DNA of 60,247 bases, from positions 1 through 60,247 of the IMG/VR virus record IMGVR_UViG_3300023118_000002; one strand, 5' to 3'. Made by a program: the position numbers and the translations under genes. Positions 1 through 57,999 of the stretch are shown piece by piece; the stretch's first letter is position 1, and the number at the start of each line of letters is the position of its first letter. The notes under the pieces were generated by a model, which was not told the origin of the DNA, searched no databases, and saw only the letters and a program-made list of their open reading frames with translations. The DNA comes from a virus (taxonomy: Duplodnaviria > Caudoviricetes).

Positions 1-127
1 AGGGTTTTGCTCACTTTCCGGTAGCGCGTTAGTTACTTCATCCATTAGATAGTGGCTCTAGGAAACGCGTAGATAAAGAGCACAATACCCAGTACAAGGT
101 TGAATGCTCCGATGAGAGACAGCCCGG
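1..127. repeat. 127 bp end overlap, identical to 60121..60247; indicates a circular/complete assembly
   Basis: Exact identity of both ends; 127 is a common assembler k-mer; the repeat cuts through genes. Confidence 0.95.
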
Positions 128-251
128 TACTCACTCCGGAAGACATACCTACGCCACGTGCCATGTAGGACCAGAATCGCAGAATGTATGCAATACCAAT
201 GATCAAGGCAAGGACCGCGATGAAAAAAAGCAGGAGGTTAAGGAAGAGCAT
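45..251 (-). CDS. small two-TM membrane protein
   Basis: Two hydrophobic stretches; GAAAGG upstream; stop overlaps the start of the next gene across the circular junction. Confidence 0.75.
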   Translation of the reverse strand: MLFLNLLLFFIAVLALIIGIAYILRFWSYMARGVGMSSGVSTGLSLIGAFNLVLGIVLFIYAFPRATI

Positions 252-372
252 GGTAGTACCTTTCTAAAAGTTAGTGAGGGGCGCAATTATCTCTAGGGGG
301 GATGAGATTTTGCTGTCTTTTATATCTGGCCTAATCGGGGGAACCGGCCAAGAGCCCACATCAAATATGTTA

Positions 373-1956
373 CTAGCGGTTCATCGAACGGCGGCGAATC
401 ACAACGCTGGCTGCGAAGAGAATCACACCGAAGATGAAGATCCCAAGAGCAATGGCACTCGTGGAGTTGGTGTTGGAGCTCGCACCAGTTGATGCAAGAA
501 CTTCAGCCGGGACAGGAGTCGTCTTGACAACTACCGGAGCAATCGTCTCGACAGGAGCAGGAGTCGTCGGCGTAACAACTACCGGGGGCTCCACAACAGG
601 CGGCTTTGCGTACTTCAGATCGAAGCAGTCACCCTTTGCTGCAACGAGAGTCGCTCCGTCACCCTTGGCATAGGACGAACCAGTCTGCCAATGGATGGAA
701 GTGATCTTGTTGTGCGGGTAGGCCGCGGCGATCTCAGCAATGGTCTTGCCAAGGAACACGTTCTTGCTACCGACATTCGCAACCGAGGCCTGAGTGACAT
801 TGTGATCGGTGATGGAAAGGGAGTTGTAACCACCCAGTCCGTCGCCAGTCAGGTCCACCACGAACCGGAAGAAGATGCCGTTTCCGACAACATCCTTATC
901 GGTCCAGTTGATGCCCGTAAAGCCCTGCAGGTTGCCGTTGGTCGGGTAACCGAACTCCACCGGAGTCTTATCGCCCTGGCTCACAAACGACTTGCCATCT
1001 GCAATATCTGCAGGAGCGTGGTCATCTGACTCAGTGTAAGCGCCACCGACGAACGTACACTTCTCGCCTGCAACCGGAGGAGCGACGTAGCAAGCAGCCG
1101 AAGCGTCTGTGCTTTGAGTTACACCAGTTGCAGGAAGCACGACGAGCGTCTGAGAAAGCAGGCCAACGACCTTGGTTCCCTTCGGGTACTTCGCATCAAA
1201 GCCAGGTCCAACTTTCTGAACGGTGGCAATATACGTACCAGGTCCCGTGTATGCCTTGTTCAAATATACGCGGAAGCCGTCACCCTCGTACCCGTTCGGG
1301 TTCTGGGCAGCAGGCCAACTCGTCAGAGGCAGCAATCCAGCAGTGTCACACGTGGGGGGATTGACCGCAAGCGGCCCAACCTCGATTGTGGTAACGGTGC
1401 AGGCGGGGGTAGTGAAGACGTTGTAAACCTGACCGGAAGCCGGCCAAGACTCGTCTCCTCCGTTGAGAACACCCTTGGTAACTAGAGCGGTCGTCTTCGC
1501 ATCATCCGCGTAGAGATCGAACTGGTAAGTCGTCCCACACTTGGTAGCGAAACTGTCGAACTGGTGGACATCCGTGCTGGTGGTCAGACCGTCATGCACG
1601 AGTGCCTGGGGGAATTTAGGCTGCAAGTTGAGCGCGCCCTCCCAGATAGCCGCGTGGTACGTCACGACGGGTGCCGTTTTCGTCTCCTGCACCGGCTCCG
1701 TGGACACCGGCGTAACCTCTGTGACGGGGTCCGGGGAAGTAGACTTCGGGAGTTCCGAGGGCGTAACGTTCGGCTCGGAAACCGGCTTCTGGGCTTCGAC
1801 TGGCGTCGTCGACTCGACGGTAGGGGTCTCGGTGACGACCTGAGCCGTATCCGTGGGCGTGCCGACCTCGTCTGCTGTGGCGGGGCCGGCCAGTGCTAAA
1901 CCCCCGAAACCGAGGGACAGGACTAGTCCTGCTGCTGCAAAGATCTTTTTCATCAT
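373..1956 (-). CDS. secreted sortase-anchored (LAxTG) cell-surface protein
   Basis: Signal peptide, Pro/Thr linkers, C-terminal LASTG + TM helix + RRRS tail; AAGGAG RBS. Confidence 0.85.
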   Translation of the reverse strand: MMKKIFAAAGLVLSLGFGGLALAGPATADEVGTPTDTAQVVTETPTVESTTPVEAQKPVSEPNVTPSELPKSTSPDPVTEVTPVSTEPVQETKTAPVVTYHAAIWEGALNLQPKFPQALVHDGLTTSTDVHQFDSFATKCGTTYQFDLYADDAKTTALVTKGVLNGGDESWPASGQVYNVFTTPACTVTTIEVGPLAVNPPTCDTAGLLPLTSWPAAQNPNGYEGDGFRVYLNKAYTGPGTYIATVQKVGPGFDAKYPKGTKVVGLLSQTLVVLPATGVTQSTDASAACYVAPPVAGEKCTFVGGAYTESDDHAPADIADGKSFVSQGDKTPVEFGYPTNGNLQGFTGINWTDKDVVGNGIFFRFVVDLTGDGLGGYNSLSITDHNVTQASVANVGSKNVFLGKTIAEIAAAYPHNKITSIHWQTGSSYAKGDGATLVAAKGDCFDLKYAKPPVVEPPVVVTPTTPAPVETIAPVVVKTTPVPAEVLASTGASSNTNSTSAIALGIFIFGVILFAASVVIRRRSMNR

Positions 1957-2241
1957 TTACTCCTTGTTTGGGTCGTGCCTGAATATTTCGATGGTGTCTG
2001 CTCTGTTTAGAAGTACCGGGGGAATTGCGAGGAGTGGTGCTGTCGTTTCGTAAACAACATCTGTTCCAACCGCTAGATGAATCTGAATTGCGTTTATAGT
2101 TCCAACTTCGCCATGACCTTCAATATCAACGAAATACGGAACTTCAGAGTCAGCTGCCAGAGCTTTGCGGTATTCACTTTTACCAGATCTTGGTGGACCT
2201 GTCAAAATAGTGAAATGGCCTTTTTGTACTGCCGACATCAT
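1957..2241 (-). CDS. small P-loop NTPase/kinase-like protein
   Basis: Walker A-like GPPRSGKS; AAGGAG RBS. Confidence 0.6.
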   Translation of the reverse strand: MMSAVQKGHFTILTGPPRSGKSEYRKALAADSEVPYFVDIEGHGEVGTINAIQIHLAVGTDVVYETTAPLLAIPPVLLNRADTIEIFRHDPNKE

Positions 2242-2248
2242 TTACTCC

Positions 2249-2359
2249 TTACAGAATGTAGAAACCGTTTTCATCCTGAGGAGGAAGGTTACCGGCTTCA
2301 ATCAAATTACCGATCAGGTCGGCCAAATCAAATATATCTTGAACGGTCATGTCGTCCAT
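2249..2359 (-). CDS. 36 aa acidic micro-protein (MDDMTVQDIFDLADLIG...)
   Basis: Hand translation; AAGGAGGA RBS; fills the gap. Confidence 0.55.
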   Translation of the reverse strand: MDDMTVQDIFDLADLIGNLIEAGNLPPQDENGFYIL

Positions 2360-2424
2360 GGTTCCTCCTTAAGTTGAAAGCGAAGGGGGCCAAGCGATTG
2401 CTCAGCCCCCAAATATATAGCTAG

Positions 2425-2607
2425 TTACTCAGCAGCCTTTTTGGCCGCATCGGTAATGTCCTCAAGGACCTCGACTGCCTTGTCGCTGGGTGCGATCTTG
2501 ATGAGGCCGGCAGCGAGCGTGACAGCTACGACACCTGCACCGATGATCACGGTACGACGGATGATGGTGCCCTTGTTGGCGTTGATGGTGCGGATGAAGT
2601 TCTTCAT
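2425..2607 (-). CDS. small single-TM protein
   Basis: AAGGAGAAAACTGATG start context; hydrophobic segment; followed by hairpin ~2385-2411. Confidence 0.75.
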   Translation of the reverse strand: MKNFIRTINANKGTIIRRTVIIGAGVVAVTLAAGLIKIAPSDKAVEVLEDITDAAKKAAE

Positions 2608-2780
2608 CAGTTTTCTCCTTGTTTGGGTTTTGAATCGAGTAACTCTTGAAGATGCTCTACAAGAGTCGTCATAACTATTTCTTGTGTGTCTAAAACAGAT
2701 CCAACTAAGAACGCAACTACAACCTGCTGTTCTCGAGTCATTTCGTCATAGACGTCTTGAACGGTTCTTGCTTTAGTCAC
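2607..2780 (-). CDS. 57 aa protein resembling the capsid scaffold helix (MTKARTVQDVYDEMTREQQVVVAFLVGSVL...)
   Basis: Hand translation; GTG start with AAGGA upstream; TGA overlaps the next ATG. Confidence 0.65.
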   Translation of the reverse strand: MTKARTVQDVYDEMTREQQVVVAFLVGSVLDTQEIVMTTLVEHLQELLDSKPKQGEN

Positions 2781-2876
2781 AATCCGGTTCCTTCACATTC
2801 CGGACAGTGGCAGACTTCGAATTCCATGTAGCCGCACGCTTCGCATTTACACGGTCCCCGATCGTCTGGTACCAGA

Positions 2877-3671
2877 TCATTGAAACATCGATCTGTAGTC
2901 TTGCCGGGGGAGAGCTCGGAAGCTAATGGCAAGACAAGGCCTCCCATCCGGAGTCAGCGCACTGTTGAACTCGATACTCATCTTGTTCTCAGGAGCGAAT
3001 CCGACCTGTTCGCCGACAACGGCGTCTTCGAGACCTACCAGGTGATAGAACTCGTTGAGTGACATGTACATCTCACCGTCAATAAGCATTTCGTTGATGT
3101 CGTTCTGAGCAGAACGAATCTTCTCCATACTCGAGGTGAAATATCGACGGGTGTAGGTGTCGAGGCAAAGTACGTCTCCGGTACCGATCACAAGAGCGTC
3201 TTCGCTAGGCGGAGGATTCTTTTCGATCTGCTTCTTGACTACCTCGGTACGGACCTGATCTTCCTTGGTCTTTCCGAGTGCCTCTACTACCTGCTCTTTG
3301 TACTCCTGGAACGCGCCTTCAGTAATTGCGAAAGCACCTACAAGAGCGGCCTGACGCCTCGAGTTGATGCTCTGAGCACCGATGATACAGGCGACCGTTG
3401 CAGCTCCAGTTGACAATGCCGGAATATAAAGCGTCCAGTTGAGCTTGACCAGATCCCAATTGGTAAGAAGCTTAGGTTCAGCTCCTCCTGCTTTATATTC
3501 CGCCTCCATGTCACTGATGAGGTTGTCGGTTTTACGGACGGCTCTAGGTGTTGCTTTGACCGCCAGTATAGCTGTACTGAAAACTCCAGCTACGGCCAGA
3601 CCCGTCAGGATGACAGGTGACTTTGTTTGAACGCCTTTTACAGCATTCCTAGCGACGACGGCGAGGGACAT
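2877..3671 (-). CDS. conserved phage protein (DUF6353-like), paralog of 55234..56133
   Basis: Two hydrophobic helices then LNEFY..LG...GF block shared with the paralog. Confidence 0.7.
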   Translation of the reverse strand: MSLAVVARNAVKGVQTKSPVILTGLAVAGVFSTAILAVKATPRAVRKTDNLISDMEAEYKAGGAEPKLLTNWDLVKLNWTLYIPALSTGAATVACIIGAQSINSRRQAALVGAFAITEGAFQEYKEQVVEALGKTKEDQVRTEVVKKQIEKNPPPSEDALVIGTGDVLCLDTYTRRYFTSSMEKIRSAQNDINEMLIDGEMYMSLNEFYHLVGLEDAVVGEQVGFAPENKMSIEFNSALTPDGRPCLAISFRALPRQDYRSMFQ

Positions 3672-3867
3672 AAATTGCCTCCGGCTTTCTAATTGTGTTT
3701 ACATCATAAAGTACGCGGCCGTTTGCGAATTTACGAATTGCTCTATTCATCCTGCGCCGTTCAAAGAATCTACGCAGGCTGTTTGCGATCGGTTTGCGGA
3801 AATATCCCAACCACAGCAAAGCTGCAAGAGGAATAGCGATCGACCACGGGATGTTATCGGGTGTCAT
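3649..3867 (-). CDS. small single-TM protein
   Basis: Extended RBS TCTTGAAAGGAG before ATG 3867. Confidence 0.7.
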   Translation of the reverse strand: MTPDNIPWSIAIPLAALLWLGYFRKPIANSLRRFFERRRMNRAIRKFANGRVLYDVNTIRKPEAIYVPRRRR

Positions 3868-3874
3868 TTGTTCT

Positions 3875-3886
3875 CTCCTTTCAAGA
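3875..3886 (-). promoter_or_regulatory. extended RBS TCTTGAAAGGA(G); representative of ~12 copies
   Basis: Other copies at ~4134, 4930, 5667, 5992 (variant), 6343, 6780, 42404, 44025, 46376, 57932, 58544, each just upstream of a start codon. Confidence 0.85.
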
Positions 3887-3890
3887 AAGA

Positions 3891-3923
3891 AAGCCATACC
3901 ACAGGATTAGTGTGATATGGCTT
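3891..3923 (-). terminator. hairpin plus T-rich tail
   Basis: AAGCCATATCACA-CTAATCC-TGTGGTATGGCTT then TCTTTC. Confidence 0.6.
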
Positions 3924-3947
3924 ATTGCAGTTTTGCAGTTGGCGAGA

Positions 3948-4127
3948 TTACTCGGCCGACTCTTCTTCGGGCAGGACCGCGTTGAGGATTGCTCCAGAGA
4001 TCAGCGTGACCGCGACCGCTGTTGCAACACCGAGAACGATGTTCACGGCAAGCTTGGTGGCGAGGGCTTTGCTGACCTTCTTGAGCTCATCCTTGTTGAG
4101 GTCTTTGATGACGGTAGAGGTGGGCAT
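3948..4127 (-). CDS. small single-TM protein
   Basis: Promoter motif and extended RBS upstream; hydrophobic segment. Confidence 0.75.
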   Translation of the reverse strand: MPTSTVIKDLNKDELKKVSKALATKLAVNIVLGVATAVAVTLISGAILNAVLPEEESAE

Positions 4128-4155
4128 TGTAGTTCCTTTCAAGAGGTATTACTGG

Positions 4156-4182
4156 TCATTATATGCCCTGTTTTTTGCGCGA
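4156..4182 (-). promoter_or_regulatory. phage promoter motif copy 1
   Basis: TCGC GCAAAAA ACA GGGCA TATAATGA. Confidence 0.8.
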
Positions 4183-4183
4183 G

Positions 4184-4540
4184 TTATCCGGGGTAACGGA
4201 GCTCGATATACTCTTCCGAGAAATCAGCCGAGTCAGTCACGAAGAGCTTTACACCTACGAGCGTGTCATCAACTAAATTGTTATTCCCTCGAGGCATGAG
4301 GAACGAGGGGAACGTGTTTACGAACAGGTTAAGGTCAACCATCGGAGTAACCGTGCGATACACAACGTGCAAAGCTGGCTCCCCCTCAGATGCAAACCAA
4401 GTATCACCCTGAATATCCAGAGCAGGCTCGATGTAGGGAGTGTCCGGATTGGCCTGAGGAGGCAGTAGTCGATACATCTGCGCTTCCAGTACACCGATCT
4501 CTTCGGGCATGATACCCATGTGAATTGCAAGACTCATCAA
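4184..4540 (-). CDS. hypothetical protein
   Basis: 118 aa ORF, AAGGAG RBS, overlaps upstream stop. Confidence 0.7.
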   Translation of the reverse strand: MMSLAIHMGIMPEEIGVLEAQMYRLLPPQANPDTPYIEPALDIQGDTWFASEGEPALHVVYRTVTPMVDLNLFVNTFPSFLMPRGNNNLVDDTLVGVKLFVTDSADFSEEYIELRYPG

Positions 4541-4710
4541 TCTTCTCCTTCTAGGTGGTCTACGATCTTCGCAAACTCGAGGTTGTCATTAAGTGTCCGA
4601 AGCATCTCGAAAGCTTCGTTTAGTGCTTTGATTTCATCTTCTTTGCGGATCAGGGCAAATATACTTACACCCAGGGCTGCACTTGCGATGACGATAGCGA
4701 TTTTATTCAT
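4537..4710 (-). CDS. small protein with N-terminal TM helix
   Basis: MNKIAIVIASAALGVSIFAL; fills the gap. Confidence 0.65.
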   Translation of the reverse strand: MNKIAIVIASAALGVSIFALIRKEDEIKALNEAFEMLRTLNDNLEFAKIVDHLEGED

Positions 4711-4770
4711 ACGCGACCTTTGCAAAGTAAAACCCTAGGCCGTGAGGCTTTCGGGTATTGGATCTTTTAG

Positions 4771-4923
4771 TTAAACGAGTTTGGATGCTCGGTAGGCGTA
4801 TGCGGAGGATTCCACAGTCTTAGCGACGGCCTTCAGGAGTCCGGTTGCTACTACAGCAGCGGACAAGAGAATGGTCGCGGCGAAGATGGGGTCTTCTTCG
4901 AAACGGGCTTTGAGTTTCTTCAT
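4771..4923 (-). CDS. small single-TM protein
   Basis: Promoter and extended RBS upstream; hairpin 4729-4759 downstream. Confidence 0.75.
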   Translation of the reverse strand: MKKLKARFEEDPIFAATILLSAAVVATGLLKAVAKTVESSAYAYRASKLV

Positions 4924-4945
4924 TGGTTTTCCTTTCAAGAGGGTT

Positions 4946-4972
4946 TCATTATAGGGGTTGTTTTTAATGCGA
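4946..4972 (-). promoter_or_regulatory. phage promoter motif copy 2
   Basis: TCGC ATTAAAA ACA ACCCC TATAATGA. Confidence 0.8.
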
Positions 4973-5085
4973 GGCTTTATGGCATTTGCAATCACAGTCT
5001 ACGTGTGCGCCTTTATACCCCCGAATATCGTTCTTGCATTCTTCGTGGTTGCCCATAAAGCATTCGTTGGTAAGTGCTTCTCCAC

Positions 5086-5316
5086 TCACGTAGTCACCTC
5101 CTCATCCACCTTGAGAGTTGTCAGCTCGAGGTTCGGATAATGGCGCGCGAAGACGGATTCCGGCATGATCAGAAAGCGCGGACGCTCGCTCCAATCCTCG
5201 ACCAGAATCCAGCCAATGTTCGTGGTGTAAGCCCGCTCATCGACACCTGAAATATGATGCAGGAGATTGGTGTTTTTCTCGGTTACTTTCCAGGCTTTTG
5301 TTTCTTGATTAGCCAT
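5086..5316 (-). CDS. hypothetical protein
   Basis: 76 aa ORF coupled to upstream stop (TAATG). Confidence 0.65.
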   Translation of the reverse strand: MANQETKAWKVTEKNTNLLHHISGVDERAYTTNIGWILVEDWSERPRFLIMPESVFARHYPNLELTTLKVDEEVTT

Positions 5317-5456
5317 TACTTTGCTTCCTCTTCCGCGCGAGCGATCTTGAGTTGTTCTTCCCAGTGCTCAACTTCGTCCCAGAAGCCGAGGCCTGTAGCC
5401 AGCTTACAAAGCTTCTCGAGCGATTCAATCGAATATCCGGTACTGTTGGTCATCAT
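5316..5456 (-). CDS. 46 aa hypothetical protein (MMTNSTGYSIESLEKLCK...)
   Basis: Hand translation; AAGGAGTAAATGATG start context. Confidence 0.6.
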   Translation of the reverse strand: MMTNSTGYSIESLEKLCKLATGLGFWDEVEHWEEQLKIARAEEEAK

Positions 5457-5463
5457 TTACTCC

Positions 5464-5661
5464 TTAAGACAAACGGTTTATCAGGATCTTGCTGAGTGTG
5501 TTGAGTCCGATTATGATGGCGATTCCAACGATGAGCTTCTCTGCTGCGTGGTCAATTACATACGTGACCTGGGCAGGAATCGGAATATCGTTTGTAGCAG
5601 GTTCAGGTGCTGCTTTGGGTTGCTCTTTTACGATGCGAACCTCGAGTTTACGACCAAGCAT
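5464..5661 (-). CDS. small protein with C-terminal TM helix
   Basis: Extended RBS before ATG 5661; the longer ORF-track start runs through a promoter and an ncRNA. Confidence 0.7.
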   Translation of the reverse strand: MLGRKLEVRIVKEQPKAAPEPATNDIPIPAQVTYVIDHAAEKLIVGIAIIIGLNTLSKILINRLS

Positions 5662-5706
5662 AGGGTCTCCTTTCAAGAGAAAAATTATAACCTGTGTTAG
5701 GTTACT

Positions 5707-5763
5707 GAAAAATATCTTACGGATTCGAACCGTGACGCCCCACAATGTGCGAGAGTATCTTTC
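5707..5763 (-). ncRNA. putative ~57 nt tRNA-like small RNA with T-loop
   Basis: Closing stem GAAAGATA/TATTTTTC, hairpin CTCGCA/TGTGGG, T-arm ACGG-TTCGAAT-CCGT; lies between promoter copy 3 and hairpin TAACCT/AGGTTA plus T-run. Confidence 0.5.
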
Positions 5764-5788
5764 ACTATAGGGCTTGTAATTCATGCGA
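5762..5788 (-). promoter_or_regulatory. phage promoter motif copy 3
   Basis: TCGC ATGAATT ACA AGCCC TATAGTGA. Confidence 0.8.
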
Positions 5789-5822
5789 AAAACTATAGGC
5801 CTTGTTAGGGCCCAATAGCTTT
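5788..5822 (-). terminator. hairpin whose T-run abuts the next promoter
   Basis: GCTATTGGGCC-CTAACAA-GGCCTATAGT-TTTT-CGC. Confidence 0.65.
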
Positions 5823-5985
5823 ATTGGATGTTGAACGGGTGATCTTCGGTGACAATTCCGTGAAATGCTTTTTTATTCAAGTTTTGGAGCTTTCGGAGTG
5901 AGAGACCAACTACGATCGCGGTTGCGAGGCAGACAGTCCCAAACAGGATAGCTACTTGCGTTGAGGTAAGTTGCGATTCATTCAT
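5821..5985 (-). CDS. 54 aa single-TM protein (MNESQLTSTQVAILFGTVCLATAIVVGLSL...)
   Basis: Hand translation; promoter copy 4 and GAAAGGA RBS upstream. Confidence 0.7.
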   Translation of the reverse strand: MNESQLTSTQVAILFGTVCLATAIVVGLSLRKLQNLNKKAFHGIVTEDHPFNIQ

Positions 5986-6006
5986 TGGTTTTCCTTTCAG
6001 AGGGGT

Positions 6007-6033
6007 TCATTATAGGCTATGTTTTCCTTGCGA
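6007..6033 (-). promoter_or_regulatory. phage promoter motif copy 4
   Basis: TCGC AAGGAAA ACA TAGCC TATAATGA. Confidence 0.8.
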
Positions 6034-6073
6034 AAAACTATAACCTTTGTGGAATTACCGTGAGGTTATAGTT
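6033..6073 (-). terminator. hairpin whose T-run abuts the next promoter
   Basis: AACTATAACCT...AGGTTATAGTT followed by TTT-CGC. Confidence 0.65.
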
Positions 6074-6078
6074 GGATG

Positions 6079-6336
6079 TTAGTTTGCGGGTATAAACCAC
6101 ATGGGGGTGTTTGGTGCAACGACTGTTTCAATGATTTCGGTAACGCCGTACTTGCGTACATCATCGAGGTACGGGTTGGACAACATTTCTTCGTACACCT
6201 TTTTAAGTTCGAGATCAGGGGCATGTTTGAGCGACACTGCTGCGTAGGCAATGACCGCTCCTCCAATTGCTGCTCCGGCGTAAAGGGCGTAAAAAGTCAG
6301 TTCGTCTTTATGGTTTTTGATGAATGTCTTAAGCAT
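6079..6336 (-). CDS. small single-TM protein
   Basis: Promoter copy 5 and extended RBS. Confidence 0.75.
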   Translation of the reverse strand: MLKTFIKNHKDELTFYALYAGAAIGGAVIAYAAVSLKHAPDLELKKVYEEMLSNPYLDDVRKYGVTEIIETVVAPNTPMWFIPAN

Positions 6337-6365
6337 GGGGTTCTCCTTTCAAGAGAAATTAGGGT

Positions 6366-6392
6366 TCATTATAGGCCGTGTTTTCCTTGCGA
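6366..6392 (-). promoter_or_regulatory. phage promoter motif copy 5
   Basis: TCGC AAGGAAA ACA CGGCC TATAATGA. Confidence 0.8.
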
Positions 6393-6409
6393 AAAAATAT
6401 AACGTATGT

Positions 6410-6456
6410 AAAAAGGGAGGACTAGTCGGCTATTAAGCGTTCTAGTCCTCCCTTTT
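6410..6456 (-). terminator. strong intrinsic terminator
   Basis: AAAAGGGAGGACTAG...CTAGTCCTCCCTTTT perfect 15 bp inverted repeat. Confidence 0.8.
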
Positions 6457-6485
6457 GGGAGTGCTATTGATTGGGTTAGCGGGTA

Positions 6486-6773
6486 TCAGATTTTCTTGAT
6501 CATACTGTAGCTTTTCGAGGTGACAGCACCGATCGATTCTTTCGAGATCACGAGGAGGATTCCGAGGATGTTCACTCCAGCACTGACCCAAACGTCTTTG
6601 CTTACGGCGGTCTTCTTTGGCTTGTTGCCATTGAGGACGTCGTTGAGTTTGACAATTTGGTCTGTGATGCGAGCGTACTCCGCGGAATCGGGATCGTGGG
6701 TTTCGAGATCGGCGATTGCGATGTTGATCATCTTTTCAAGGTGAGGGTATTGTTCAGGTGTTTTCTTCAACAC
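6486..6773 (-). CDS. small membrane protein
   Basis: Promoter copy 6 and extended RBS before GTG; C-terminal hydrophobic helix. Confidence 0.75.
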   Translation of the reverse strand: MLKKTPEQYPHLEKMINIAIADLETHDPDSAEYARITDQIVKLNDVLNGNKPKKTAVSKDVWVSAGVNILGILLVISKESIGAVTSKSYSMIKKI

Positions 6774-6796
6774 GAGGGTCTCCTTTCAAGAGGGGT

Positions 6797-6823
6797 TCAC
6801 TATAGCACTTGTTTTTACTGCGA
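6797..6823 (-). promoter_or_regulatory. phage promoter motif copy 6
   Basis: TCGC AGTAAAA ACA AGTGC TATAGTGA. Confidence 0.8.
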
Positions 6824-6824
6824 A

Positions 6825-7277
6825 TTACTGATCGTAAGGCTGAATCGGGTTTACAACCTGGATGACACTCTGAGCTGCTTCTACTTTGGCAACACCCTTG
6901 TCATCAACCGTGGCAGAGTTGCTAGGCGATACGATGAGTCCATCGGTACGGATCTGCACGCCGAACTCAGTTGCTGCGGCCTTAATAACACCGATCAGCA
7001 CCAGAATAACCTCGGACCATGTAATCTGATGCGAGATTGCATACGGCAGCACAAGCGCAATAGCTGCACCAGCCAGATCCACGAGGGTCTTTGTAGCTCC
7101 CGGCCACTTACCTGGCAGAAGGGACACGAGACCCACCGACACAACGGTCGACAGGAACAGCGCGCTCAGCTGCAGGAAAGTAACCAGGTCGAACGTCTTG
7201 ACTGCAGAAACCGCGGTGAGGACCACGATAAGCAGACCGAAGATACCTGCGCCATACTTCTTAAGTACAGTGTTCAT
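6825..7277 (-). CDS. multi-TM membrane protein, holin candidate
   Basis: About four TM segments; AAGGAG RBS; follows the last tail gene. Confidence 0.55.
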   Translation of the reverse strand: MNTVLKKYGAGIFGLLIVVLTAVSAVKTFDLVTFLQLSALFLSTVVSVGLVSLLPGKWPGATKTLVDLAGAAIALVLPYAISHQITWSEVILVLIGVIKAAATEFGVQIRTDGLIVSPSNSATVDDKGVAKVEAAQSVIQVVNPIQPYDQ

Positions 7278-7321
7278 TCTTTTCTCCTTTGTTTTGTCAA
7301 AATATCCCCCCGGGCATTTTT

Positions 7322-8134
7322 CTAGCCTGTCTGCTTCCAAACGCCAGCCACCTTAACGAAAGGCTGTGCCATGACCCAGACACCGTTCACCTTAACATAA
7401 GGAACCGCGTATTTCCACAAGCCACCTACCTTAACCCGCATAGGTGCAATCGTCTTGACCGTGACGGGGGCTGAGTTAACTGAGTACTGACCTGCAGAAC
7501 CGTTATGCGCATACACGACGTATGTGTAAACGGTACCTGGGATCAAGCCAGTGTCCTGCCTAGAGACGTTGTTCTGGAATGAGACGTCTGTATATGCGCC
7601 AGTCATAGAAGATCCTAGCCATCTACGCAGCAAATATCCGTCAATACCTGCACCACCATTGTCGCCCGATCCACCCCAAGTAAGGGTCATGGATGTAGGC
7701 ATGACATTGCTAGCTACAGGCGTACCAGGCTGGCTCGGAGGTTTTGGAATACGAGGATAGGGACCAATAGATCCGTAATCCGTGCGGTTCCACACAGACC
7801 AGCTAAGCGTCTGTGCAACGCTATCAGCGCCTCGGTTACCTGCTCCGTCATGTCCGAGGTTTACACCCCAGGGACCGTCATACCATCGTTGAGCTCCAGC
7901 ACCTACACCTGAAGGAAGCGTACCACCGTGACCGTTACCACCAGCGCCACCTACAGTAGCTGTCTGGGCGCCGTTGTTATTATTGAACGATCCCGAAGTC
8001 CCTCGGTTAATAGCACCAACCCAGTAATAAACGGTTGAATAGTTACCACCTTGATCCTGCGAAACTAGATCAGCGTCGGTGTAGAACTCAGTAGACGGGG
8101 ATGATACGTTTACACCTACACGTCTAGTTGCCAT
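7322..8134 (-). CDS. minor tail protein with fibronectin type III domain
   Basis: PSQPGTP..SMTLTW..GGAGIDGY..GLIPGTVYTYVVYAHN FN3 signature; C-terminal VKV.G.W repeats. Confidence 0.8.
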   Translation of the reverse strand: MATRRVGVNVSSPSTEFYTDADLVSQDQGGNYSTVYYWVGAINRGTSGSFNNNNGAQTATVGGAGGNGHGGTLPSGVGAGAQRWYDGPWGVNLGHDGAGNRGADSVAQTLSWSVWNRTDYGSIGPYPRIPKPPSQPGTPVASNVMPTSMTLTWGGSGDNGGAGIDGYLLRRWLGSSMTGAYTDVSFQNNVSRQDTGLIPGTVYTYVVYAHNGSAGQYSVNSAPVTVKTIAPMRVKVGGLWKYAVPYVKVNGVWVMAQPFVKVAGVWKQTG

Positions 8135-8144
8135 ACGAAGCCTC

Positions 8145-8390
8145 CTATGGCAAGGTCATGAGATAGATGTCTTTGTCAGCGCCGTCCGTATTAAGTGGGG
8201 CTGCAGTACCTGAAGTGATACCTGCAGCCGCCTGGAATGCTGCGTGACCGACTGGAATCAGTCCTTTGACCTGAGCAATGTAATCCCGGGTTCGGTTGAT
8301 CTCTTGAGCTCCCAGCTTTACCCTGCCAGGATCTCCGGTATTTGGAACGAGGGCATAGCCCGCCGCAGTTGCGTCGTCTCCAACAGCCAT
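8145..8390 (-). CDS. minor tail protein
   Basis: Position; ITSGTAAP..GADKDIY tail-fibre-type motif. Confidence 0.65.
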   Translation of the reverse strand: MAVGDDATAAGYALVPNTGDPGRVKLGAQEINRTRDYIAQVKGLIPVGHAAFQAAAGITSGTAAPLNTDGADKDIYLMTLP

Positions 8391-8434
8391 TACTTACTCC
8401 TTTCCAAAGTAAACTACTCCTATTTTGACGTTCA

Positions 8435-9871
8435 TCAAGGCTCGTCTGCCCAATGGATTGCGTCCGGCACATCTTGCCATACGGTCTGACCTTGAGCAGC
8501 CCAAACGCCAGGGGTAATCACCAGACGCGAGGATAGAGTCGGATAGGACTTTTCGCCGGCTGCATCTTGGCTAAAGATCTGCTCAGTGACTCGAACGTTG
8601 TTAACGACACTGTCTTGGTTACGCACTTCAAGAATGTCTCCGAGGAAGTAGTCCTTGTCGTACTTATAAGATCCGAACTGCGGGATCTCGCCGTCGAATG
8701 CTGTGATGTTGTTGTACTTTTGTAGTTCTTGCAGTCCCTTAGCCGTTAGAAGCGCAGCCAAAGCCGCATCTTCAGTTGGATTGTAAGCAGTAGAAACGTT
8801 GCGAGCTGCGGTAATGTCAGTAATCTGGGCCGTAGTAAGAGTTGTACCAACTAGCGCTAGAACCGTGTTGATGTTGACTATGTCCTGAGGAAGTAGTCTT
8901 TGCAACTTACTGATCTTAGCGAGCGAATCGTTCTGGAACTGAGTCGTCGTAGTAAGACCCTGAGCCACCTTGATTGATGCCTGCTGAGCAGCAGTAACCG
9001 TGTAAACCGGAACTCCACCAGAACCCGCAGTTGTACGATCCGGGAAAGTGATGTCCGACGTAACATAAAGAACATGTCTTGAGAACCCTGCAGTTGCAGG
9101 ATCGATACTTGGCTCATAGACCTTTTGAGTGCCGTCTGGACTAAAGACGTAGGCCATGTTCTTGTACTGTTTTACAGAAGTCAAATATGACGAGTTCAGC
9201 AGGTTGTCAAGCACGGGGGCAAATACCACGGCGGGTAGTGCAGTCTGTCCTGTAGTGCGGTCATTACCAGAATATACATTGAAGAACAGCTGGGAGTTAT
9301 CCGCATTACGGGTGATTCTAAAGCCGAGGTCATACGTCTGACAAACGGATTTAAGAGCCGAGAGAACGCTTGTAATATCGATGGATACTGTGATAGACGT
9401 TGACGGCTCTGCAATAGTATCTGCAGGATATAGATTACCTGCCGCGTAGAAAGGCAACACATCAGCTGCGTCAAGAAGTCCATCGACCATTACGTTCTTA
9501 AATATCTGACGAGCTATGGCGGCGGGAAGACCGGTGATAACCCACTTGGGCTCCGCAGTCGTCCCGCCTACCATAGTATCTCGAGCTACACGGTCATCCA
9601 GTAGAATTTCAATGGATGACCCTGTCACAATAAGGACTTGAGAGCCGTCACTGTTACTCTTGTCTTCAATAGTCTCAATCGTCATGATTCGATTTGAACG
9701 GTTCATGGCTAGCAGCGTGCCCTGTGTGAGCAAGTTGCGGTTTGCGAGCGTCGAATGGATGTTCAGAGTAAGATCCCCGACATCGTTGTAACGCTCGGCC
9801 CAAACCACCGAGTCAAAGCTGTCAATGACAGCCGTTCGACGAAGAAGGCCGTCTAGGACATAGAGTTCCAA
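8435..9871 (-). CDS. baseplate hub/Tal-like minor tail protein (ReqiPepy6 Gp37-like)
   Basis: Follows Dit; DSFDSVVWAERYNDVG N-terminus and DYFLGDILEV C-terminal motif. Confidence 0.8.
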   Translation of the reverse strand: MELYVLDGLLRRTAVIDSFDSVVWAERYNDVGDLTLNIHSTLANRNLLTQGTLLAMNRSNRIMTIETIEDKSNSDGSQVLIVTGSSIEILLDDRVARDTMVGGTTAEPKWVITGLPAAIARQIFKNVMVDGLLDAADVLPFYAAGNLYPADTIAEPSTSITVSIDITSVLSALKSVCQTYDLGFRITRNADNSQLFFNVYSGNDRTTGQTALPAVVFAPVLDNLLNSSYLTSVKQYKNMAYVFSPDGTQKVYEPSIDPATAGFSRHVLYVTSDITFPDRTTAGSGGVPVYTVTAAQQASIKVAQGLTTTTQFQNDSLAKISKLQRLLPQDIVNINTVLALVGTTLTTAQITDITAARNVSTAYNPTEDAALAALLTAKGLQELQKYNNITAFDGEIPQFGSYKYDKDYFLGDILEVRNQDSVVNNVRVTEQIFSQDAAGEKSYPTLSSRLVITPGVWAAQGQTVWQDVPDAIHWADEP

Positions 9872-30427: not shown

Positions 30428-30452
30428 CGCGGCCTCCTTTCAAAAGTTTAGT

Positions 30453-30485: not shown

Positions 30486-30493
30486 GTGCCAGA

Positions 30494-30571: not shown

Positions 30572-30588
30572 TGGGTATTTCTCCTTTT

Positions 30589-33594: not shown

Positions 33595-33679
33595 CAGTTT
33601 TCTCCTTACTTTGCGTGGTATAGACCCCTGGAGTTTCCAAAGACATACCACAGAATTTCCCCCCGGGGATTTTTTGAGG

Positions 33680-33688
33680 ACAGCGGCG
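33680..33688 (-). other. predicted cos site, 9 nt 3' overhang CGCCGCTGT
   Basis: Non-coding gap between polymerase and lysis/packaging modules; resembles CGCCGxxxT overhangs I recall for related phages. Confidence 0.6.
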
Positions 33689-33745
33689 ATGCAGAGAGGG
33701 GGCCCGAAATTTTAGACCCCCCCTCCCCTACACCTTATAAACTCC

Positions 33746-34030: not shown

Positions 34031-36766
34031 CTACTTGTCAAGTGCTGAGTACAGTGTACTGGTAGAGATACCTAGTCTAGATGCAATCTCCGCAACTGTA
34101 TAGTTGCCTGATGCTAACATGGACTGGGCTAATGCAAGGCTAGCATTGTTAACCTTGGGCCTATCTCTTGGTGTGGCGAGGGATCTAAGATCTTCAACAT
34201 CTGTATTGTCAATGATCTGCTTAAGCTTACTGGCGGTAATGGCACCGGATTGAATGGCGTTCCATTCTTCATCAGTAATCTTAATCTTAATCTTACCAGC
34301 ACCAACCCTAGTACGTGCCTCAGTAAGGGCCATACCATTGACCTTCTTGAGGTCTGCCTTATCAATACCGGGGTTCGCTTCAACCTTAGCCCTTACAATA
34401 GACTGGGCCAACAACTGGGCTTGTCTTTCGAGGGGGGCATTCTTTAGAGCAATGTTTAGCTTAGCATTTAGAGACTTAACCTCATTACTGTAAACACTCT
34501 TAGCAGACTGGCTGTATGGAATGTTCTTAATAGTGAGGGACTCTTTTCTAGCTTCATTAGCAAGAGCCTTTAGACTATTAGCATGATCAGCATAGATGCG
34601 TTCAATTAGGGTACCACCATTACCAGACACAAGGGTATGTGCGTCATTGGTATAGGCGCCTTTCTTAACCTTCTCACGAGAGATGGTAACTTCACCCTTT
34701 TTGTTTGTATAGGTTTCATCAGCAATTACATAATGCTTGTTACCCTTAGCATCAGTCTCCCAATGAGAACCCTTTGGTACGTACATCTTCTCACCAGTAG
34801 CTGCATCAATAGGACCACCAAGGTGCACAGGCCGAGGCTTGCGAGCATCAATGTTTTTATCAGATGTAGTTCTAGAGATCAGTGTAGAGGCACCTTTTTT
34901 AGCACCATTCTGATACTTGCGCTTTAGCTCGTTAATGTTGTTGTCAAGAGCAGAAGCCTTGTAATCTAAGTTGTGTTTCTCAGCATCGATAACAACCATC
35001 GAATGACGAACAGCTCGAGCAATCTCACTTTCATGAGCACCCTTAATAGTCATGTCCGTAATTAGATTAGAAACATCACCCATAAGCTGTTGCTTAAGAC
35101 CGCCTGGATTCTTAGCTCCAGCAAGACCCTTAGTAGAATCTTTCGGAAGCTTGTACAACTCTTTAGGATCAAAGTTCTTAAGTCCACTAAGAGCGGCGGA
35201 AGTCTTAACTTTTCCGTCGTTATTAGGAATTACAAGAACTGTATCACCATCAAAGTCTGCACCTGACAGACGTTCTGCTACCTTGGCATTGATTCCAACT
35301 GCGTCCCTAGCATTCAAAGTAATTGAACGGCGAGCTTCCTTATTACTGTTGTTTACAGTAAGTTGTGGAATCTCAAAGATGCCACCATGAGGGTGACGAA
35401 CTAGAGTGACCACATCTCCATCGTGATACTTAGGAGCAAAGATTTCCGTTTCACTAAGACTGTTAATTGGAAGGATTACATGGTTTGCAGTTCTCGGAAG
35501 ACCAGTTGCTTGAAGTTTCACAGCTGAAGAATCAGCCTCGTCTGCATAAGTCTCGAGCAGCTTGCGCTTAACTCCAGGGTTTGTCAGAGCAAGGATGTCT
35601 TCTAGATCCGCACGCTTTGAGTTCTGCGTAAGATCCAACTGAGCTTTAGCAAGGGCCGGCGTCTGCTTCGAAAGGAACTGTGACGAGAAGTTATTAGACC
35701 AGGTGTACCAATCACCTTCCTCATTCACAATGTTCAGAGGCGAACGCTCAACCTTACCTGTCTTAGGATCTGTGTAACCCTTAGGCCGAGTAATAGAACC
35801 AAACGGATTCGATTCGTCTCCAGTCTGAGGCTTCAAAGCGTCTAGCTTGTTACCGGTATCTTTTTTGTTGGTATTGAACAGAATGTCAACGCCCTTAGGC
35901 AGATCATCCTTGTACATTGCCATACCCTTGATGTAGTGCGTACCATCAACAGGGACACGAACCTGAGCATAGTTTGCATTGCCCAAAGAAATGTCAGCGA
36001 CACCCGGACGAAGGTACATCACACCATCAGAAGCAGCACCACCGTCAGGACCATACTTAACCTCAACACGCTTCGAACTGATGTTAACAAGAGGGCCCAA
36101 ATCGGCGGCTTTCTTATTAGTATCAGGATCGATGTATTCAGCGATGCTATGGATTTTATCCTTGTTGTGATAAACCTCTTTAGCAGTTGTAGATTCGTGT
36201 ACTAAGACCTTCAAAGAAGTCTTCTTACCGGTACCTACCTGAGTTACGTCGGTGTAACGAATAACGTAACCCTGGTCCTTAAGCATAGCAATGCCCGTCT
36301 TAAGAGTCGTGTCACTGATTCCCATGTGGTTCTCAGTACCCTTACCGACATCGACATACTTGTACTTGTCAACGTTGTCTTTAAGGATGTTAGCAACAAC
36401 CTGGTTACGATTAGCACGCTCCTGAACAATGGGGTCCATAAGAGCCCGAACAGAAGATTCGTTCATACCCAACTGCTTACCGATTGCGCTGTTGCTCATA
36501 CCCTTATCTTTAAGAGCCATGATACGACGAGTTTTCTCGGCACGAACATCGTTAGAAGAGATAGAGCGGCGAGCACGGAGATCAGCTGTAGAACTAAAAC
36601 CCAGTCCCTCAGCAATCTTAACCTCACTCAAACCCTTCTTCTTAAGATCTTCATAGGCTGCTAGAAAGCTGACGCCACTTTGGTAAGGGTCTTCACCTGA
36701 ACCCCAAGGATAGCGTCCTGAGTGATGCGGAGTACCATAGTGAGCGAGCGTTGATTCGTCATTCAC
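34031..36766 (-). CDS. single-subunit two-barrel RNA polymerase (YonO/cellular RdRP-like) with HTH domains
   Basis: SGADFDGD at 35243-35266 preceded by LVRHP; upstream SDG and AQVR..YIKGM; three HTH-like segments; AAGGAG before GTG 36766. Confidence 0.8.
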   Translation of the reverse strand: MNDESTLAHYGTPHHSGRYPWGSGEDPYQSGVSFLAAYEDLKKKGLSEVKIAEGLGFSSTADLRARRSISSNDVRAEKTRRIMALKDKGMSNSAIGKQLGMNESSVRALMDPIVQERANRNQVVANILKDNVDKYKYVDVGKGTENHMGISDTTLKTGIAMLKDQGYVIRYTDVTQVGTGKKTSLKVLVHESTTAKEVYHNKDKIHSIAEYIDPDTNKKAADLGPLVNISSKRVEVKYGPDGGAASDGVMYLRPGVADISLGNANYAQVRVPVDGTHYIKGMAMYKDDLPKGVDILFNTNKKDTGNKLDALKPQTGDESNPFGSITRPKGYTDPKTGKVERSPLNIVNEEGDWYTWSNNFSSQFLSKQTPALAKAQLDLTQNSKRADLEDILALTNPGVKRKLLETYADEADSSAVKLQATGLPRTANHVILPINSLSETEIFAPKYHDGDVVTLVRHPHGGIFEIPQLTVNNSNKEARRSITLNARDAVGINAKVAERLSGADFDGDTVLVIPNNDGKVKTSAALSGLKNFDPKELYKLPKDSTKGLAGAKNPGGLKQQLMGDVSNLITDMTIKGAHESEIARAVRHSMVVIDAEKHNLDYKASALDNNINELKRKYQNGAKKGASTLISRTTSDKNIDARKPRPVHLGGPIDAATGEKMYVPKGSHWETDAKGNKHYVIADETYTNKKGEVTISREKVKKGAYTNDAHTLVSGNGGTLIERIYADHANSLKALANEARKESLTIKNIPYSQSAKSVYSNEVKSLNAKLNIALKNAPLERQAQLLAQSIVRAKVEANPGIDKADLKKVNGMALTEARTRVGAGKIKIKITDEEWNAIQSGAITASKLKQIIDNTDVEDLRSLATPRDRPKVNNASLALAQSMLASGNYTVAEIASRLGISTSTLYSALDK

Positions 36767-37346
36767 CGAAGGTCTCCTTATCGATCTCAGTAATGCGGCG
36801 GTCAAAGGTTTTGATTGAATCGATGATGTGCATCAAGTCATCCAGATCCGGAACATAGATCTCAACTGCATCGCCCTTGTAGATACGAAGTTCGATGTCG
36901 ATGTCGGCCGGGTTGTGACCATACTCGAGACAAAAGATGCAGGCATAGATTTCAAGCTGGCGCATGTAAGTACGAGTAGTACCAGTCTTGAGATCATGAA
37001 TGCGAAGCATCCAACGTTCAGTCTTGGGATCGTAACGGAATGAAATGGTGTCAGCTGTACCGAAACAATTTGGAGAGTAGTACAAAGGCTGCTCTGGCTG
37101 CATTTTGAAACCGATACCGTCATTGACGTAAAGGTTCATAGTCTTACGAACGTCAGGCATTTTAACCCGAAGCGCGATCAGTTCTGCAGCGAGAGCGTGC
37201 TTACGATCTCCGAGCCTAGCTGCCTGAGCAGTGTAGACTCTTTTGTCCATAGCTTCTTCATCATAGTTAGTCCAGCTCGGGTTGCTGGGTGCCATGAGGT
37301 TAGCGTGCTTACCTGCCAACTCGTAGTGCGGATTGAAGCGCATCAA
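36759..37346 (-). CDS. PD-(D/E)XK Cas4/RecB-like exonuclease
   Basis: GDRKH, PEQ, FGTAD, IHDLKTG, QLEIYA motifs. Confidence 0.8.
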   Translation of the reverse strand: MMRFNPHYELAGKHANLMAPSNPSWTNYDEEAMDKRVYTAQAARLGDRKHALAAELIALRVKMPDVRKTMNLYVNDGIGFKMQPEQPLYYSPNCFGTADTISFRYDPKTERWMLRIHDLKTGTTRTYMRQLEIYACIFCLEYGHNPADIDIELRIYKGDAVEIYVPDLDDLMHIIDSIKTFDRRITEIDKETFGE

Positions 37347-37617
37347 GAACCTCCTCTTTGTTTTCTGGATAGATAAACGCGGAGAATGACATCTGGTTCA
37401 TCTGATCAACAAACCAATCCTGGTTAGGCTGATGAGGTGCGTCTTCAGACTTTTTAACTTCTAATGCTGCCCAGCGATTCTTCCATAGAATCAGAAGGTC
37501 GGGAATTCCTTGCTGGTAGCCGGAGTCGTTCTTTTGGATTATGCATCCCGGGAACAGTTCACGCAGCTCTTTAATCAAGTCTGCCTGAAAGTCCCTTTCT
37601 AGTTTAGAGGTCATCAT
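37309..37617 (-). CDS. VRR-NUC endonuclease / Holliday junction resolvase
   Basis: LERDFQ, GIPDL, ALEVK, PNQ motifs. Confidence 0.85.
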   Translation of the reverse strand: MMTSKLERDFQADLIKELRELFPGCIIQKNDSGYQQGIPDLLILWKNRWAALEVKKSEDAPHQPNQDWFVDQMNQMSFSAFIYPENKEEVLDALQSALRVGR

Positions 37618-37679: not shown

Positions 37680-37706
37680 TCATTATAACAGATGTTCTTG
37701 GTGCGA
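37680..37706 (-). promoter_or_regulatory. phage promoter motif copy 7, upstream of VRR-NUC/exonuclease/polymerase
   Basis: TCGC ACCAAGA ACA TCTGT TATAATGA. Confidence 0.75.
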
Positions 37707-37708
37707 TA

Positions 37709-38001
37709 GTATGCTATAAAGTCGAGGAAGCTAGACAAAAAAATTATCACATGTAAAAAACACAAATCTCAAATATTTTGGGCAAAAAACTTTTCTGTAG
37801 GAAATTTGATTTTATAGCATGCTATAATTCTAAAATTCTCGCGTAAAGAGTTTATAGCAAAATATTTGTGTTTTTGTGCAGAGGATTTCCCGGAATTCCG
37901 GGGTTTTTAGGGGGTGTCTCAAAAAAACCGTTTCTAAGACACCCCCAAAACCCTCGACTTTATAGCATACACCTCGGCCTACTTGTATGCTATAAAGTCG
38001 G
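37709..38001. repeat. AT-rich non-coding region with inverted iterons; candidate replication origin
   Basis: GTATGCTATAAAGTCGAGG at 37709-37727, exact inverse at 37952-37970, partial copy at 37985-38001; palindrome TTATAGCATGCTATAA at 37812-37827. Confidence 0.7.
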
Positions 38002-57972: not shown

Positions 57973-57999
57973 TCGTTATAGTGCATGTTATTTGTGCGA
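57973..57999 (-). promoter_or_regulatory. phage promoter motif copy 8
   Basis: TCGC ACAAATA ACA TGCAC TATAACGA. Confidence 0.75.

Follow-up and report, generated by a model that had tools for sequence, protein, structure and literature searches.

The closest described counterparts of the system considered here are the two-barrel RNA polymerases (RNAPs) of Thermus phage P23-45. These enzymes carry out rifampicin-resistant pre-early and early transcription from motifs of their own, the co-occurrence of motif and enzyme being used as support; gp96, a virion enzyme, is paired with an AT-rich motif and gp64, a non-virion enzyme, with a GC-rich one (PMC10770324). YonO, from the Bacillus prophage SPbeta, is likewise a phage-encoded single-peptide DNA-dependent RNAP homologous to multisubunit RNAPs; unlike the system described below, it transcribes one long late operon, and in its 2017 description the promoter sequence was left undetermined (PMC5467207). 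A further polymerase family, YonO/crAss-like and with a DxDGD motif, was proposed by Koert et al. as a signature of a supergroup of Actinobacteria and Firmicutes phages (10.1101/842583). Here we analyze a 60,247-nt stretch of DNA from a virus of the Caudoviricetes (IMG/VR record IMGVR_UViG_3300023118_000002; hereafter the window) that encodes a predicted member of this family and carries eight copies of a rigid 27-bp motif, TCGC-N7-ACA-N5-TATARYGA, six of them between positions 4,156 and 6,823. We propose, with a probability of roughly 0.6, that the eight copies are cognate promoters of the phage's own single-chain two-barrel RNAP, the product of open reading frame (ORF) 34031-36766.

By analogy, the system looks most like that of P23-45. 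Both pair a siphovirus single-chain polymerase of the cellular/QDE-1 class with a motif placed directly upstream of early start sites and found only in enzyme-carrying relatives, and in both the polymerase gene itself lies behind the motif (PMC10770324); the start sites in the window are predicted from sequence. The predicted structure of the window enzyme also matches Thermus-phage RNAP structures (PDB 8f5m, 8f72 and 8h2m), although identity in the structural alignments is only ~12%. The two systems differ in that the window enzyme has fused helix-turn-helix (HTH)/sigma-4-like modules, whereas the term "helix-turn-helix" occurs 0 times in the text of PMC10770324, and in that the window motif has three blocks, the proximal one mimicking TATAAT. 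In keeping with a two-barrel RNAP promoter, an intact DxDGD enzyme is encoded, the motif is oriented and stands at gene heads, and almost all near-complete motif-bearing records carry the enzyme.

Eight copies of a rigid three-block motif

An exact pattern scan finds the motif eight times in the window, always on the minus strand (at 4156, 4946, 5762, 6007, 6366, 6797, 37680 and 57973), where the expectation is 0: no match occurs in 100 dinucleotide-preserving shuffles of the window. Allowing three mismatches adds sites at chance level only. When scored with a position weight matrix (PWM) built on 209 unrelated IMG/VR motif instances, the eight copies reach 27.0-38.0 bits, the next site in the window 9.9 and the maxima of 20 shuffles 5.2-17.5, and this gap sets the copy number at exactly eight. 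Scan, shuffles and PWM all agree with the original prediction, made from the sequence of the window, of eight rigid minus-strand copies at gene heads. That prediction had also placed the blocks about one helical turn apart, which is only roughly right, as the block starts are spaced by 11 and 8 bp. The hexamer of the proximal block is TATAAT in five copies, TATAGT in two and TATAAC in copy 8.

The copies sit in intergenic gaps, 25-70 nt 5' of a Shine-Dalgarno (SD) sequence and start codon, with the exception of copy 3, which is followed by a non-coding stretch. Each unit of the central cluster has the order terminator hairpin and T-run, promoter, SD sequence, small gene. Copy 1 (4156..4182, as all others on the minus strand; PWM 30.8) precedes a gene at 4127-3948, copy 2 (4946..4972; PWM 38.0) a gene at 4923-4771 and copy 6 (6797..6823, TCGCAGTAAAAACAAGTGCTATAGTGA; PWM 30.7) a small gene at 6773-6486. 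Copies 4 (6007..6033; PWM 36.2) and 5 (6366..6392; PWM 36.7) each lie directly 3' of a hairpin and T-run and precede genes at 5985-5821 and 6336-6079, respectively, while copy 3 (5762..5788; PWM 34.7) follows a terminator at 5814-5796 and precedes a non-coding, tRNA-like RNA. Copy 7 (37680..37706, TGT-TATAAT-GAAGGAG; PWM 27.0) heads a nuclease-exonuclease-polymerase operon, and copy 8 (57973..57999, with a hexamer that lacks the final T; PWM 29.6) heads a gene run from 57925 to ~38009 that includes a DNA primase/polymerase (53358-49522) and a helicase. This placement, between an upstream terminator and a downstream SD sequence and start codon and on the coding strand only, supports the motif being a promoter.

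Three candidate features at the motif were set aside. The T-run before TCGC in copies 3-5 was rejected as a -35 or UP element, as it is the tail of the upstream terminator and lies outside the motif. The GAAGGAG after copy 7 is unlikely to serve the translation of a leader, since no start codon follows, and the resemblance between CTATAGTGAG and the T7 promoter core in reverse complement is treated as coincidence.

A predicted two-barrel RNA polymerase behind copy 7

The first gene after copy 7 encodes a VRR-NUC-like endonuclease (37309..37617, minus strand; phrog_93, E = 1.8e-17), and it is followed by the gene of an exonuclease that is Cas4-like in relatives (36759..37346, minus strand; phrog_3953, E = 3.3e-62) and by that of the predicted polymerase (34031..36766, minus strand), a single chain of 911-924 amino acids that matches phrog_4291 over its full length (E = 0). 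The three genes overlap and lie directly 3' of copy 7, which is where the original prediction had put the polymerase operon, and a homologous promoter also heads this operon in relatives.

The catalytic motif GADFDGD (residues 515-521) is invariant across an alignment of 100 homologues, and an AlphaFold (AF2) model of the polymerase built with this alignment has a mean predicted local distance difference test score (pLDDT) of 89.8 and a predicted template-modelling score (pTM) of 0.84. When this model is compared with the PDB using Foldseek, the best matches are QDE-1 (7y7s, E = 1.2e-9) and two entries labelled as Thermus-phage RNAPs (8f5m, E = 6.3e-7; 8f72, E = 2.4e-6), with further matches to plant RDR2 and to P23-45 gp96 (E = 1.3e-3). 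The TM-scores of these fold matches are low (~0.3, at ~12% identity), as expected for a multi-domain chain at such identity; by sequence, the polymerase gives weak HTH matches only against the PDB (E >= 0.32). Pfam matches to sigma-70 region 4 and further HTH families fall at residues 90-122 and 882-923. In the model, helical HTH-type modules span residues ~42-148, a winged helix residues 157-203 and a C-terminal helical HTH array residues ~845-923. We conclude that ORF 34031-36766 is, as predicted from motif and fold, a QDE-1/YonO-like two-barrel RNAP with HTH modules at both ends, which bears out the HTH-bearing polymerase assigned to it originally.

No sigma factor, MotA/AsiA-like protein or other transcription factor was detected in the 40 ORFs scanned (with Pfam, 10 of them also with PHROGs; the ~70 smallest ORFs were outside the scan), and the two-barrel enzyme and the primase-polymerase were the sole polymerase-like ORFs identified. 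The polymerase family is large, with at least 2288 representative clusters (50% identity) at E <= 1e-3 and 884 at E <= 1e-30, and its members in 250 cultured phage records come from Arthrobacter, Gordonia, Streptomyces, Microbacterium and Lactococcus phages and from gut phages. In databases the family is annotated only as "HTH DNA-binding protein" or "RdRP" (RNA-dependent RNA polymerase).

The first 40 residues of the polymerase are disordered in the model yet carry a nearly invariant peptide, LxHYGxxRxSGRYPWGSG (36650-36766, minus strand). Two DUF7211 repeats (LAHYGVLGMHWG) resembling this peptide are present in a GNAT acetyltransferase (24949-25923, minus strand) encoded between terminase and portal, and other left-arm ORFs of some relatives also begin with this peptide (in one example with 65% identity over residues 10-44, E = 6.6e-10). 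The likeness to DUF7211 comes from reading the sequences alone; with Pfam, the polymerase peptide does not reach DUF7211 and HTH families alone score. Peptide and repeats may represent a shared targeting tag. In eight relatives the polymerase match is split (~12-657 and ~680-922) within one longer frame, indicating an insertion near residue 660-700, and in two library proteins of ~1800 amino acids the polymerase forms the C-terminal part behind ~1060 extra residues.

The non-coding region before copy 7 (37707-38008, minus strand) contains several copies of GACTTTATAGCATAC, one pair of which forms a 15-bp inverted repeat, together with a palindrome, TATAGCATGCTATA, and a strong hairpin. Iteron-like repeats occupy the same position in relatives (GGTCAAAAG in Truckee and TGGCCAAAAA in FP_oengus), and one possibility is that replication starts in this region, another that it binds a regulator of the polymerase operon.

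Motif and polymerase in related phages

The association between motif and polymerase was examined from both directions. An exact scan of IMG/VR for TCGC-N7-ACA-N5-TATAATGA yielded at least 112 stretches, many with 3-9 copies. Among the matches listed, the polymerase was found in 55 of the 76 records searched, and 35 of the 36 records that are >=90% complete encode it, so that the co-occurrence in relatives proposed as a check in the original prediction is borne out. In the opposite direction, 80 loci were chosen by polymerase similarity alone, 68 of them with >=1500 nt of upstream sequence. In 35/68 of these loci a three-block motif heads the nuclease gene, at a distance of 700-1500 nt from the polymerase on its upstream side, against 0/68 for control segments of the same length taken from inside the gene; all 20 full motifs in the polymerase-first loci (805 kb) are on the coding strand. 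In the class of motif that heads polymerase operons, AGAAGG is the usual sequence after the hexamer; in window copies 7 and 8 it is GAAGGA. A blastn search with promoter-leader segments of the window gave short matches in seven phage records, of which five (DizzyRudy, Damascus, both OhMyWard records and Truckee) encode the polymerase, with Mossy and Makai outside this check.

Cultured relatives carry recognizable variants of the motif. Arthrobacter phage Truckee (polymerase identity 47% in the 12-68 region, family ~49-52%) has seven exact copies after its tail genes (29400-32426) and four further copies with TCA for ACA, giving 11 in all at syntenic places, one of them before the nuclease-polymerase operon. 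Scap1, a Streptomyces phage of 61% GC whose polymerase is 51.5% identical, has three copies of TCGCAAGTTTTACA-N5-TATAGTGAGACCCCTAC. Lactococcus phage P078 (37.6% identity) has ten plus-strand copies of TTTTAAGTTTTACA-yrCCC-TATAAT, eight of them followed by GA; the TTACA-N5-TATAATGA spacing is kept, the first block differs and is A/T-rich, and neither a -35 nor a TGn is present. The temperate Faecalibacterium phage FP_oengus (40.9% identity) gave 0 real matches when scanned with the actinophage pattern, and its own motif was found by reading upstream regions: 13 copies of GACGCGAAAAAnnCA-N5-CTTTATGGA stand before small early genes and the polymerase operon. This motif, ACGCG-N6-CA-N5-CTTTAT-G, is in the same register as that of the window ([A/T]CGC-R-N6-CA-N5-hexamer-G), and its hexamer has no A at position 2, the base needed for -10 recognition by sigma-70-family factors. 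The layout is therefore conserved across two host phyla, with blocks that vary with polymerase lineage and with one lineage in which resemblance to the host -10 is absent.

A small RNA and the probable start of transcription

The bases around the hexamer were compared in 298 unique instances from IMG/VR, with nCA-N5-TATARY-GA as the sole basis of selection. Across them, block 1 is nearly fixed (T.93, C.99, G.98, C.97), a purine occupies position 5, A/T bases prevail at positions 8-11 and GA is followed by R and then A (.73), frequencies that are inflated because each locus was found via an exact match. Conserved bases extend beyond the hexamer as G-A-R-A in this set, which was itself selected for GA.

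Copy 3 is followed by a small structured tRNA-like RNA (5707..5763, minus strand) with a closing stem of 8-10 bp, an inner hairpin and a T-arm-like element (GGTTCGAATCC), after which come a second hairpin and a U-run, to ~5680. In its minimum-energy fold, the G right after TATAGT and the next seven bases pair with the bases before the U-rich tail. A stem that begins at the G of the terminal GA folds better than shuffled sequence after copy 3 (z = -2.47; 0/200 shuffles fold as well) and after copy 8 (z = -2.29; 4/200), in agreement with the original prediction that RNA stems start there; after copy 7 the effect is not significant (z = -0.71). The copy 7 leader (37630-37681, minus strand) can form a hairpin that begins at its first G and has CUUUUUG behind it, in the manner of an attenuator; the fold is no better than those of its shuffles.

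Homologues of the small RNA were found in Truckee (locus L009, 19976-20049, minus strand) and in one IMG/VR contig (locus L096, 115-192, plus strand); a pattern search of 76 IMG/VR records gave 0/76 further homologues. In both, the closing stem likewise opens with the G after the hexamer, and a U-run follows its 3' strand (GAGAAG/CUUCUC with U7, and GAGAAAGUAA/UUACUUUCU with U5). Among the three RNAs, both strands of the stem differ at positions 3 and 6 with pairing kept, a covariation argument of three sequences, and all three carry the T-arm-like GGUUCGAAUCC. MAFFT/RNAalifold recovered the T-arm alone, with misaligned ends, and the closing stems were read from single-sequence folds. ARAGORN calls no tRNA in the window and does not recognize the small RNA, and Rfam gives chance-level matches only (E >= 1.2) for the RNAs after copies 3 and 8. 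In P078 (locus L124, ~23998-24060, plus strand), one promoter copy is followed by a tRNA D-arm-like TTAGCTCAGAGGGAGAGC; ARAGORN calls no tRNA there (50 kb).

If copy 3 makes the small RNA, its stem places the 5' end at or before the G after the hexamer, since a sigma-70 start ~7 nt further on would lose the 5' strand of the stem. The stem thus points to initiation at the hexamer edge rather than 6-8 nt downstream. Of the earlier claim that RNA synthesis begins right after TATARY, the small-RNA stems in three phages speak in favor, while the z-scores are modest and processing is possible.

Comparison with host and other phage promoters

The motif shares with a sigma-70/sigma-A promoter its hexamer (TATAAT or TATAGT, with A at position 2 and T at position 6, in 7/8 copies) and an ordinary distance to the SD sequence. 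The remaining hallmarks are missing: the best TTGACA match at spacers of 16-19 nt is 1-3/6 in all eight copies, at a background mode of 2-3, as foreseen in the original prediction, and an extended -10 TGn, which could stand in for the -35, occurs in copies 6 and 7 only. A sigma-70 scanner flags none of the six copies within 1-9000, and sigma-70-like sites are not enriched in the window relative to shuffles (5 vs 6.3, 17 vs 20.3 and 7 vs 12.2). The motif further departs from host promoters in its two extra fixed blocks, at -31 and -20 of a sigma-70 start, in the invariant bases right after the hexamer, in a start that is probably at the hexamer edge and in the existence of a relative with a non--10 hexamer.

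These observations bear on the reading that best survives beside our own, in which the copies are strong early host sigma-A promoters acting through the TATAAT -10 alone, TCGC and ACA are sites of another phage or host factor or are inherited by descent, and the phage polymerase transcribes, for example, late genes. Such an assignment would account for the hexamers, for leaders of ordinary length, for the TGn of copies 6 and 7 and for the intrinsic terminators that bracket the units; -10-only promoters are common in Actinobacteria, and the genes served (small central genes and replication genes) look early, a class that normally needs host RNAP unless a polymerase is injected. The relative YonO transcribes late and not early genes (PMC5467207). 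We nevertheless regard this reading as unlikely. The copies lack a -35 throughout, and copy 8 lacks the last T of the hexamer. The reading would also have to explain why FP_oengus keeps the full layout in 13 copies with a CTTTAT that lacks the essential A, and why the spacing is the same in Lactococcus phages, whose hosts normally require a -35 or TGn, both of them absent here. The invariant bases and the small-RNA stem at the hexamer edge also speak against it, no candidate for the other factor appears in the ORFs scanned, and the intergenic gaps show no further conserved motif as an alternative site for the polymerase.

A less probable variant, and a distinctly doubtful one, has both enzymes using the sites: host sigma-A would fire weakly, from TATAAT or from a sigma-70-like site before copy 7, and the phage polymerase would then take over through the upstream blocks. 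This would solve the bootstrap without a virion enzyme and would fit the -10 mimicry kept in four actinobacterial-host lineages and in Lactococcus phages, as well as the TGn of copy 7. The site in question, TTGAGA-18-(TG)GATAAT (37743..37772, minus strand), lies 37 nt upstream of copy 7 and is a candidate host promoter for making the first polymerase; it may also be a chance match, as such matches are no commoner than in shuffles. In cultured relatives the polymerase operon is at the right genome end, which by analogy with cos phages would enter the cell first. The FP_oengus version is again difficult to reconcile, as it has no usable -10 even in the copy before its polymerase operon.

That the motif is instead an operator-like regulator site (compare the oriented "stoperators" of some mycobacteriophages) or the boundary of a mobile promoter-gene cassette, not defined by the polymerase, is very improbable: the many oriented copies in short intergenic gaps and the central small genes, which look independently inserted with a terminator each, would suit it, but the motif includes a melting-prone hexamer, a short and constant distance ahead of genes that follow terminators and would have no promoter without it, no repressor-like gene is found in the ORFs scanned, and the layout is conserved in lytic and temperate relatives alike.

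Two further classes of phage promoter offer partial likenesses. In T4 middle promoters a MotA box at -30 pairs with a sigma-70 -10, so that, as here, a -10-like hexamer is combined with a specific box ~13 bp upstream that replaces the -35; the window motif differs in its third block (ACA), in belonging to a system that spans Gram-positive phyla and in the lack of a MotA/AsiA-like protein among the ORFs scanned with Pfam (small ORFs outside the scan). Promoters of the T7/SP6 type are also compact (~30 bp) and rigid, with a TATA segment abutting a purine-rich start. The window polymerase is of the two-barrel class and not of the T7 (Pol A-like) class, and the likeness is hence one of analogy, not membership.

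Proposed mechanism and its weak points

We favor recognition of the motif by the phage polymerase. In this mechanism, HTH modules fused to the catalytic core would read the upstream blocks, TCGC at ~-25 and ACA at ~-13, the A/T-rich TATAAT block would serve as the melting region, and RNA synthesis would begin from, or one base after, the conserved G 3' of the hexamer (G-A-R-A). Six promoters, mid-genome and terminator-bracketed, would have a single target each, a small gene for five of them and a small RNA for the sixth, and another would head the run of replication genes. Copy 7, heading the nuclease-polymerase operon, would give feed-forward expression, and its transcripts might, once the genome ends join, read through into the lysis and structural genes. 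The first polymerase molecules might come from host sigma-A acting on the TATAAT block or on the neighboring sigma-70-like site, or from a virion-borne enzyme, an idea suggested only by the N-terminal peptide. As regards the original prediction, that the phage polymerase reads the motif is a probable interpretation, favored by the co-occurrence, the lineage variants, the non-sigma-A hexamer and the RNA stem and open to the objection of common descent; the position of copy 7 is consistent with positive autoregulation.

Several observations count against recognition by the phage polymerase. The proximal block is a perfect sigma-A -10 in the five TATAAT copies, actinobacterial sigma-A promoters are often active without a -35, so that host RNAP could use the sites, and the intrinsic terminators between the small genes are of the type obeyed by host RNAP. 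Under the pattern used, only 35 of the 68 polymerase-selected loci have the motif before the operon, and the co-occurrence is confounded by the common descent of the whole phage group. The start-site argument comprises three sequences with z-scores of -1.05 to -2.47 (-1.05 to -1.91 for trimmed segments), and it is possible that the small RNA derives from an upstream promoter or a processed precursor, which would undo it. If the polymerase is not in the virion, a motif before its own operon cannot be the sole route to its expression, and as FP_oengus is temperate, induction there must begin with host RNAP.

Genome setting

As an IMG/VR virus record the window is complete and has direct terminal repeats, and its minus strand carries every recognizable gene. 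Along the direction of transcription, the replication genes (primase/polymerase, 53358-49522; helicase, 40552-39260) are followed by the nuclease-exonuclease-polymerase operon (37617-34031), a non-coding stretch rich in G/C runs (33745-33595), the genes for lysin, terminase (27707-25932), portal, protease-capsid fusion, tape measure (14882-10665) and tail proteins, and finally the cluster of very small genes (6823-3948). Cultured relatives such as Truckee have the same circle cut just past the polymerase gene, which puts the polymerase operon at the right genome end, and by synteny the G/C-run-rich stretch would be the counterpart of their genome ends. No minus-strand terminator was found in this stretch (33595..33745), and transcripts from copy 7 could thus read on into the lysis and structural genes. 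Neither a copy of the motif nor a minus-strand terminator was found between 34031 and 7322, and sigma-70-like sites are not enriched there.

Other features of the window, all on the minus strand, include a Pistol self-cleaving ribozyme (42665-42716; Rfam RF02679, 38.4 bits against a gathering score of 34.5, E = 0.0017) in a 318-nt non-coding gap among replication-region genes, and an ORF (48179-48529) with an Acb2/Tad1 hairpin domain (Pfam PF24729, E = 5.8e-13), a family of anti-CBASS/anti-Thoeris nucleotide sponges. Two paralogous DUF6353 proteins (2877-3671 and 55234-56133; E = 3e-68 and 2e-65) are encoded ~7.5 kb apart round the circular map, flanking the arbitrary start of the record. A 274-nt non-coding gap (58535-58808) contains a tRNA T-arm-like hairpin (CAGGGTTCGAGTCCCTG, 58677-58693); no tRNA is called there.

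Implications

We found no description of this promoter in the searchable literature, a search that the supplementary figures of Koert et al. and Chaban et al. lie outside. The word "promoter" occurs 0 times in the text of the paper that proposed the polymerase (10.1101/842583), in Arthrobacter phage papers and in a Microbacterium phage paper. The motif is probably the cognate promoter of a widespread and uncharacterized phage polymerase family. More tentatively, and with some doubt as to the whole, these observations may be joined into one reading, in which a huge family with built-in sigma-like HTH modules would itself recognize a three-block promoter, melt the block that mimics a -10 and start right after it, giving host-independent transcription in phages of Actinobacteria and Firmicutes, and in which the N-terminal peptide might serve as a packaging tag, so that the polymerase would be delivered together with the DNA. 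Were the tag real, the motifs would be true early promoters of an injected enzyme.

With a defined 27-bp candidate and its natural specificity variants, the way in which a sigma-less two-barrel RNAP finds its promoters becomes testable in vitro. The same elements are a possible source of orthogonal expression parts for Gram-positive hosts and, if the assignment is true, it would explain the low-GC, one-strand genome architecture of this phage supergroup.

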